From Rotaria magnacalcarata (lineage: Eukaryota), in the NCBI GenBank assembly GCA_965140935.1, contig CBCSLL010000171.1:87492-144993 (forward strand): a stretch of DNA of 57,502 nucleotides. The letters run 5' to 3'. The notes beneath the pieces are model-generated. The model was not told the origin of the DNA. It worked only from the letters and a program-made list of their open reading frames with translations, and did no database searches. This document shows positions 25,767-27,627 of the stretch, piece by piece. The position numbers and the translations under genes were made by a program. Each line of letters opens with the position of its first letter. Positions within the stretch are counted from its first letter, which is position 1.

Positions 25767-27627
25767 GCTGATCAATTGACAGAAGAACAAATTGCCGAAT
25801 TTAAAGAAGCTTTTTCTCTATTTGACAAAGATGGTGATGGAACAATTACAATAAAAGAATTTGGTATGAAATTCTTCATTTTCTTATATATGTATCTACC
25901 TAAATATTTACTAGGTACGGCGGTGCGTAGTCTTGGTCAAAATCCAACTGAAGCTGAATTGCAAGATATGATCAATGAAATTGACGCTGATGGTAAGGTT
26001 TTAGCCAATCAAATAGTACAGGACGGCGGCCCATAACGGTGTCAGTTTCCGTTGATTCGTGGTTTATCTGATGCAGAATTTTATGGCAATTGTGTTCACA
26101 CCAAAATGAAATGGTTTTGACACAATTGAACCTGTTTTCTACTAGAAATATTGAGTTCATTTTCTATAGTAAAAGCGTACAATTCGTACGTGATTCACTG
26201 ACTCCTACAAAGTTTTGTAGGCAGTAATATTATGAAATGAAAATTCTATCAATTAATTGTTTACTATCGGTTCAATGTATGATAAAAATTTCTTGCCATT
26301 CCTTTTTGCTCTTTTTTGCAATACCTCGAGACAGAATAATAGCAACATGAGTTTTTGATTGATTCTGACTGCCTTGGAGATAAGCTACAAAATCATATGT
26401 TTTTCAATTATTTTCAGTAATGAATTTTGATTGCTAGTGTACTCTGACTTCGGTTAAACCTAATTTCTAGTATTTGTATTGAATTATCTGGAATATTCTT
26501 ATTATAAAAAGTTGCATGTCCACCAAAATTAATCTCAGATTTCGAATCAGCACTGTCAGTTCTCTAGTTCAGTATACCTTTCATACTTCCGTTTTGAAAT
26601 GTTCTTTTCGTCGAATATTTACCAAAGGAAGTCCAAAAAAGAGAACTTTTCTAAAACACAATCTTTCATTATAATTATGATCTCCGTCGTCTCCATGAAC
26701 GTCATTTCTGATCAAGAATTCGTTTTGGGGGGTAAATCCCTCTCTCTTTCAATCTGTATTTTGACGAAAAAAGCATGATTTTGTAGCTTATCTCCAAGGC
26801 AGTCAGAATCAATCAAAAACTCATGTTGCTATTATTCTGTCTCGAGGTATTGCAAAAAAGAGCAAAAAGGAATGGCAAGAAATTTTTATCATACATTGAA
26901 CCGATAGTAAACAATTAATTGATAGAATTTTCATTTCATAATATTACTGCCTACAAAACTTTGTAGGAGTCAGTGAATCACGTACGAATTGTACACTTTT
27001 ACTATAGAAAATGAACTCAATATTTCTAGTAGAAAACAGGTTCAATTGTGTCAAAACCATTTCATTTTGGTGTGAACACAATTGCCATAAAATTCTGCAT
27101 TAGATAAACCACGAATGGATGAAAACTGAGAATGGCCCAAAATTGACCCTTATGCACCCTTTTTCTCTGACTTGGTTTATGCATTTTGATCATTTTAAGA
27201 AGAAAAAATATCTACCTTTAATTCAACATAGGCGTTCACATAATTAAAATCAAAACTCGAGATATATTTATTCTTAACGTCATTCAGTTTTTTTTCTTGA
27301 ATATAAGAATAACAAATAGTTATTGATTATAATTGCATTTTCTTTATTATCAGGTAATGGTACGATTGATTTTCCTGAATTTTTAACTTTGATGGCACGT
27401 AAAATGAAAGATACTGATTCAGAAGAAGAAATTCGTGAAGCATTCCGCGTCTTTGATAAGGACGGCAATGGATATATATCAGTTGATGAACTCCGGTAAA
27501 GGAAAAACTAACATAAAAATATATTTATCCTGCTTCTTCTTTAAAAGTAATGTAATGACAAGTTTGGGTGAGAAACTCACCGATGAAGAAGTTAACCAAA
27601 TGATTCGAGAAGCTGATACTGATGGAG
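25767..27627 (+). CDS. Calmodulin-like gene, exons 2-5: 25767-25863, 25915-25992, 27354-27495, 27548-27627. Exon 1 (probably ATG only) and the terminal exon were not located with confidence.
   Basis: Translation is [33 protein letters not shown] | [26 protein letters not shown] | [47 protein letters not shown] | [27 protein letters not shown]. This matches calmodulin EF-hands 1-4 nearly residue for residue. Splice phases are 1/1/2/1 with GTATGA, GTAAGG, GTAAAG and GTAAGA donors. Confidence 0.8.
26058..27118. mobile_element. Large foldback (palindromic) element: left arm ~26058-26398 and right arm ~26775-27118 are near-perfect reverse complements (~340 bp). The unique spacer is ~375 bp. It sits inside the intron between calmodulin-like exons 3 and 4.
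   Basis: Direct comparison shows attcgtggtttatct...ccttggagataagctacaaaatcat on the left equals the reverse complement of atgattttgtagcttatctccaagg...agataaaccacgaat on the right, with only isolated mismatches. Confidence 0.85.

Follow-up and report, generated by a model that had tools for sequence, protein, structure and literature searches.

The window, by which we mean the whole 57,502-nt stretch of Rotaria magnacalcarata DNA that was analyzed, encodes TPR + ADP-ribosyltransferase proteins, an F-box-like protein, a PARP/VIT/VWA gene and a calmodulin-like gene, with a near-perfect palindrome lying inside an intron of the last. Over 132 aa, the product of this gene shows 89-90% identity to animal calmodulins. 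The gene family appears, on sequence comparison, to be a fast-evolving calmodulin-like paralogue, not calmodulin proper. EF-hand 4 seems degenerate (DTDGG... vs. VGGG and VGEG in relatives), and the canonical last exon (QVNYEEF...) was not found within 27548-27800 of the window, 12041-12230 of the related locus L001 or 6475-6560 of the related locus L004. As for the PARP gene, the ORF at 20260-20874 has relatives in Rotaria sp. Silwood1, R. sordida, Didymodactylos carnosus and many metagenome contigs, with a best identity of 89%; an exact look-up of the neighboring ORF matched no record. The features needed for what follows are listed here by window position:

25767-25863, 25915-25992, 27354-27495 and 27548-27627, + strand: exons of the calmodulin-like gene, the 3' end of which is uncertain
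25915-25992, + strand: exon upstream of the insert-bearing intron, (G)+25 residues+(G), the last residues being the first four of the EF-hand 2 loop
25993-27353, + strand: host intron, 1361 nt, phase 1, GTAAGG...TATCAG
26042-26405, no strand: left arm of the inverted repeat (repeat search, blastn and mismatch map)
26406-26765, no strand: loop (spacer), unique, non-coding, 360 nt, GC 32%
26766-27129, no strand: right arm, the reverse complement of the left arm at 355 of 364 positions
27354-27495, + strand: exon downstream of the insert-bearing intron, (G)+46 residues+(R), comprising the remainder of EF-hand 2 and then EF-hand 3

The intron at 25993-27353 retains its GT...AG signals and splits the Ca-binding loop of EF-hand 2 within the Gly codon of DADG/NGTIDFPEF (slashes mark junctions here and below). 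The first-pass annotation of this DNA had correctly assigned the structure to an intron of a calmodulin gene, in our terms the calmodulin-like gene, but it placed this intron between EF-hand 2 and EF-hand 3, when in fact EF-hand 2 itself is interrupted (DADG/NGT).

Structure of the inverted repeat

A repeat search of 25000-28200 returned two arms of 364 nt each (26042-26405 and 26766-27129), 98% complementary and 360 nt apart, and blastn of the region vs. the window matched one arm to the other with 97.5% identity over 364 nt at E = 2e-178, which excludes a chance origin. The whole unit, at 26042-27129, amounts to 1088 bp (~1.09 kb). The nine mismatches between the arms (26049, 26051, 26053, 26054, 26070, 26176 and 26397-26399) are concentrated at both arm edges, and the near-perfect core at 26055-26396 harbors only 2 mismatches in 342 nt (99.4% identity). 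The foldback recognized on first reading is thus real, its arms being 364 nt long and complementary at 355 of 364 positions, and the dimensions then given (~340-bp arms and a 375-bp spacer within 26058-27118) agree with this core. What takes the inverted repeat out to 26042 and 27129 is an outermost heptamer, TCAGTTT at one end and AAACTGA at the other, which pairs perfectly; a poorly paired 6-nt patch lies just outside the core, between it and the heptamer, and the outermost 13 nt of the left arm, TCAGTTTCCGTTG, are paired with the opposite end at 9 of 13 positions.

Neither a third copy of the arm nor a second copy of the loop was found by blastn in the 57.5-kb window, in keeping with the unique spacer described earlier. 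The GC content of arms and loop is 32% vs. 34% in the flanks (33.7% for the window), and this host-like composition points to resident, not foreign, DNA. Tandem Repeats Finder yielded 0 rows for 25900-27400, and the arms lack subterminal repeated motifs, with no word of at least 10 nt occurring twice within an arm. The + strand RNA is predicted to fold into one continuous 364-bp stem with an MFE of -663 kcal/mol.

The same intron in related bdelloid loci

Protein searches with calmodulin were rejected as a route to orthologous loci, calmodulin being too conserved, with no rotifer among the matches listed. Four related loci (L001, L004, L017 and L018) were reached via the proteins of neighboring genes and five others (L007, L008, L013, L014 and L015) via a metagenome scan with the exon anchor GAATTGCAAGATATGATCAATGAA. 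All nine, whether orthologous or paralogous, carry an intron at the same position with a length of 52-258 nt vs. 1361 nt in the window, and no sequence resembling the arms or the loop occurs in any of the nine loci, in agreement with the insertion proposed in the first-pass annotation. Given that the insert is missing from nine loci, it represents either a lineage-specific insertion or a unit lost from one sister lineage; the collinearity of the flanking intron implies that the whole unit constitutes an insertion/deletion polymorphism. For annotation purposes, the 1.09-kb insert explains an intron that is 5-25 times longer than its orthologues.

The closest locus, L017, with exons ~88-91% identical, is homologous up to window position 26018 and again from 27168; for L004, homology runs up to ~26037-26048 and again from 27130. 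The window and L004 have in common two 'outer' segments, ~60 bp in total:

26021-26041, no strand: left 'outer' segment, flanking the inverted repeat, shared only by L004 and absent from L017, L018, L015, L007, L013 and L001
27130-27166, no strand: right 'outer' segment, shared only by L004 and absent from the other orthologous introns

Two histories fit these alignments. The palindrome may have been inserted into the 'outer' segment in the window lineage only, which would make the insert young. Alternatively, the unit may have been present in the ancestor of the window and L004, with L004 having deleted the palindrome to leave CATAACAACTAAAGTTT/GGTATCGCC, in which case only arm-to-arm conversion would account for a core that is still 99.4% identical. 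The edge clustering of mismatches fits gene conversion, without proving it. In a locus tree built to see whether the window and L004 are sisters, every grouping that included the window had a bootstrap value of <30%. The first-pass annotation put forward the right pair of alternatives, recent insertion or gene conversion, and both histories fit. The idea that the 'outer' segments form a terminal inverted repeat of their own was rejected (local alignment score of 13 vs. 10.6 +/- 2.0 in shuffles, p = 0.13).

Ends, copies and coding capacity

The insert junctions read ...CATAACGGTG/TCAGTTT...AAACTGA/GAATGGCCC, and the flanks of 26042-27129 are ...AACGGTG/ and /GAATGGC.... A target-site duplication, a point raised with the first-pass annotation, was sought at every plausible boundary, and none of at least 2 bp was present at 26042 and 27129, at 26043 and 27128, at the core limits of 26055 and 27116, or at the 'outer' limits of ~26021 and 27166. 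A direct repeat, GGCCCA(T/A)AA, was rejected as a target duplication since L004, which is without the insert, has both copies in diverged form. L004 provides the only informative empty site, CATAACAACTAAAGTTTGGTATCGCC, and the comparison is blurred by ~20% divergence; this site allows an alignment in which TCAGTTT, the 7 nt that open the arm, belongs to the host and has its mirror image at the opposite end.

The insert lacks the hallmarks of several known families. TTAA is absent at both ends of 26042-27129, whereas piggyBac-type elements integrate at TTAA and carry this motif on either side. Tc1/mariner-type elements have a TA target duplication next to CAGT... ends; here the ends read gT/CAGTTT...AAACTG/Ag, the dinucleotides beside CAG and CTG being GT and AG, not TA. 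Two features of Drosophila-type Foldback (FB) elements are missing as well, since the arms are without tandem subrepeats and the flanks without a 9-bp target-site duplication. To our knowledge, the insert termini match no superfamily consensus.

Searches of the window, of 120 kb of related bdelloid loci, of the JGI metagenomes, of the viral and prokaryote collections and of the protein collection gave no second copy of the insert; as the host species' own genome lies outside these, they amount to a weak test of copy number. The JGI metagenomes, viral contigs and prokaryote genomes were queried with an in-frame pseudo-protein of the arm, returning only chance pattern matches, none of which was confirmed. 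For proteins, the stop-free segments from all six frames of arm and loop (28-aa minimum for listing), joined into a 592-aa concatenate, had no homologue at E <= 1 among 5.8 billion proteins, leading us to reject both a decayed transposase and a gene-derived hairpin; the longest stop-free stretch in the insert measures 81 aa, and no such stretch has a homologue. Rfam gave no significant match in the region, the sole row being mir-981 at 27653-27737, outside the insert, with E = 0.4 and 17 bits vs. a gathering score of 51.

Other foldbacks in the window

Two further long inverted repeats bear on the interpretation:

36219-37351: second foldback, 1133 bp, with 297-nt arms that are 99% complementary (2 mismatches) and a 539-nt loop
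~24969-25199 vs. 25515-25746: older decayed inverted repeat, 78-81% alike, directly preceding exon 2 of the calmodulin-like gene (25066-25199 and 25600-25733 in the repeat search)

The second foldback is bounded by TTAA/CTTGAAAAGG...CCTTTTCAAC/TTAA and, judging from these ends, fits a piggyBac-type non-autonomous element; its loop harbors a short ORF (MPRKSQHSKS...) near 36805. Of the older repeat, L004 keeps one arm (5632-5737) and L001 none, and in L017 the right arm and the spacer survive along with a remnant pair of 32 nt (4693-4724 and 5081-5112), a distribution that suggests either an ancestral palindrome decaying by lineage-specific deletions or a local inverted duplication. There are also several MITE-like inverted repeats of 200-300 bp in the window. 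Short inverted repeats of this kind were seen at 34725-34934 and 44819-45027 of the window, at 855-1212 of L002 and at 2936-3608 of L017, most of them without an obvious target duplication.

Discussion

The insert is an ordinary, known kind of feature, and the best reading, to which we give about an even chance, is that it is a non-autonomous class II (cut-and-paste) transposon of the foldback or long-TIR type, 1088 bp in length, with 364-bp TIRs and a 360-bp non-coding loop. It has TIRs at both ends, it is present or absent as a unit when compared with the nine loci and it is devoid of transposase coding capacity, as class II elements of this sort would be; the target-site duplication of this class was not found, which genuinely counts against a recent integration of the canonical kind. 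Further support comes from the context, as other foldbacks and inverted-repeat elements occur in the same window. Bdelloid DNA transposons are diverse and mostly of low copy number (PMC7943196), and PMC2861651, with reference to Arkhipova & Meselson 2005, describes the one large indel of earlier bdelloid gene-rich contigs as the insertion of a foldback-like DNA transposon. Under this scheme, a transposase acting in trans would have recognized the arm ends, TCAGTTT...AAACTGA, and mobilized the insert, which the formerly short intron of the calmodulin-like gene would then have received. The near-identity of the arms would reflect a young insertion or arms that convert each other, and the insert is presumed to have no host function. 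If so, it adds one more low-copy DNA element to a bdelloid genome, and its main uses would be to mark a dated insertion and to offer a natural example of a 364-bp dsRNA stem within an intron, in an animal whose RNAi machinery is expanded.

Among known systems, Tc7 of C. elegans is 921 bp long and carries 345-bp inverted repeats around a unique core. Elements of this type resemble the insert in their size of ~1 kb, in having near-identical arms of a few hundred bp around a short unique non-coding core, in the absence of tandem subrepeats and in the presence of CAGT in the ends. They differ in being flanked by a TA duplication and in sharing terminal bases with the autonomous Tc1, whereas the insert has GT/CAG...CTG/AG flanks without duplication, and neither an autonomous partner nor a second copy was found. 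Drosophila FB elements likewise have long inverted terminal repeats able to snap back, with a variable middle region, but their arms consist of tandem subrepeats and they are flanked by 9-bp target duplications, neither of which the insert possesses. The bdelloid 'foldback-like DNA TE insertion' (Arkhipova & Meselson 2005, as described in a passage of PMC2861651) is alike by description, being an indel in collinear gene-rich DNA in the same animal class. Within the window, the foldback at 36219-37351 has the same build and sits in the same genome neighborhood, but it is unrelated in sequence and has TTAA on both sides, fitting piggyBac-type integration. Finally, Drosophila hpRNA loci are, like the insert, long inverted repeats whose arms measure a few hundred nt and could yield Dicer substrates, the stem of the insert being a predicted one; in contrast, the arms of hpRNA loci originate from particular genes, which they also target, and such loci are long-lived in evolution, while the arms of the insert match no gene and the structure is lineage-specific.

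A transposon is not the only way to arrive at a palindrome of this sort, and a one-off palindromic insertion from double-strand-break repair, outside any transposon family, is the main rival and a serious one, albeit rather unlikely in our view. In this scenario, captured DNA would have become an inverted dimer, or else fold-back or template switching would have made the arms, with gene conversion within the palindrome perhaps keeping them alike. Such an origin would agree with the missing target-site duplication and with the lack of another copy in the collections searched (the host species' genome being outside these), as well as with terminal 7 nt that may, according to the L004 alignment, belong to the host and be repeated as a mirror image at the opposite end. 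Mismatches at the edges around a 99.4% identical interior are also the pattern expected from homogenizing conversion, and the older repeat (~24969-25199 vs. 25515-25746) has one arm where L004 and L017 carry a single copy, which is compatible with local inverted duplication. Bdelloids are, in general, animals in which break repair is frequent. Nevertheless, neither arm is local and both are missing from the nine related loci, so that a simple fold-back of the broken locus cannot explain the palindrome. A mismatched patch directly inside perfectly paired 7-nt termini is more reminiscent of imperfect transposon ends than of a copying product, the similarly built foldback at 36219-37351 has the TTAA ends typical of transposition, and the prior for a repair product is low compared with that for long-TIR transposons. 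The broader proposition, that the palindrome is a repair scar in a break-tolerant bdelloid and that three unrelated foldbacks of 0.7-1.1 kb in a 57-kb window came from one sequence-independent process and not from three transposon families, strikes us as quite doubtful. Were these foldbacks single-copy repair products, they would constitute a record of how bdelloids mend breaks and would show how palindromes arise, homogenize and get deleted without conventional meiosis.

We regard it as very unlikely that the insert is a selected hairpin-RNA or regulatory element, serving as a source of endogenous siRNA or as a splicing control of the calmodulin-like gene. The predicted stem of the sense transcript (364 bp, -663 kcal/mol) and the expansion of RNAi gene families in bdelloids (PMC7943196) would suit such a role; however, the structure is not conserved, being missing from 9 of 9 related loci, the arms resemble no protein-coding gene, among the 5.8 billion proteins, on which such a hairpin might act, and no significant Rfam match was obtained. 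An hpRNA locus in particular fits poorly, given that the arms have no homologue among these proteins and that the locus is absent from relatives. The remaining explanation is an inverted chimeric join, e.g., from palindromic whole-genome-amplification products or long reads, that created one arm in the assembly, and this we deem highly improbable. Amplification of microscopic animals ahead of sequencing is known to generate palindromic reads (PMC13265396), and the window does contain two near-perfect long inverted repeats. On the other hand, an inverted chimera would copy local sequence and never return to the original orientation, yet arm, loop and arm are all extra as compared with the orthologous introns, and beyond the insert the host sequence continues, its orientation unchanged, from the corresponding point of the short intron; moreover, there are 9 differences between the arms, some of them in two clustered patches. 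The inverted assembly join that the first-pass annotation had named as the finding to overturn the palindrome is thus unlikely, with arms and loop extra, flanks collinear and 9 differences between the arms.

Effects on splicing and on dsRNA or siRNA production, as suggested in the first-pass annotation, are plausible if the modeled stem does form. Arms pairing in the pre-mRNA would loop out the insert, leaving 49 nt upstream and 224 nt downstream, i.e., ~273 nt of intron, unpaired, which would bring the effective intron near the 180-260 nt of several relatives; the stem would also be a Dicer-type substrate. The suggestion of a fragile site was weakened by the 360-nt spacer, since spacing and divergence lower breakage at inverted repeats, except where long single-stranded DNA is exposed (PMC10164571). 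With a spacer of this size, extrusion of a hairpin or cruciform is unlikely under normal conditions, and widely spaced repeats are a danger mainly where long single-stranded DNA is exposed (PMC10164571), a situation that is conceivable in a desiccation-tolerant, break-prone animal.

Additional observations

The non-coding DNA around the calmodulin-like gene (21500-29100) is several-fold larger than in L004, L001 and L017. The excess consists of window-specific blocks of ~1 kb at 22558-23635, 23666-24672, 24743-25545, 26042-27129 and 27634-28957, with only some of them having inverted repeats; a search of the other window-specific blocks near the gene turned up just one, a decayed 87-nt pair at 28575-28785. 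Positions 3616-3706 of L017 match 22032-21943 of the window in inverted orientation, adjoining an inverted repeat with 53-nt arms, which hints at a small inversion.

Elsewhere in the window, an inverted-repeat element at 14434-14753 (301 bp, with 54-nt arms, 96%) abuts on its right side GGTGTGGGTGTGGGTGTG, comprising three units of TGTGGG, which we take to be the bdelloid telomeric repeat; this may mark either telomere repeats added at an interstitial site or an element associated with telomeres. A 585-aa ORF at 39874-41631 (+ strand) is followed by an ORF at 42110-42577 (+ strand) with a C2H2-like motif, and no flanking inverted repeats were found. The 585-aa ORF has no Pfam match and 2571 homologues at E <= 1e-3 in a representative library of 1.84 billion, typically with ~30% identity over ~500 aa and with lengths of 400-1450 aa; seven long homologues are likewise without Pfam domains. 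This ORF probably specifies a widespread, uncharacterized transposon-encoded protein.
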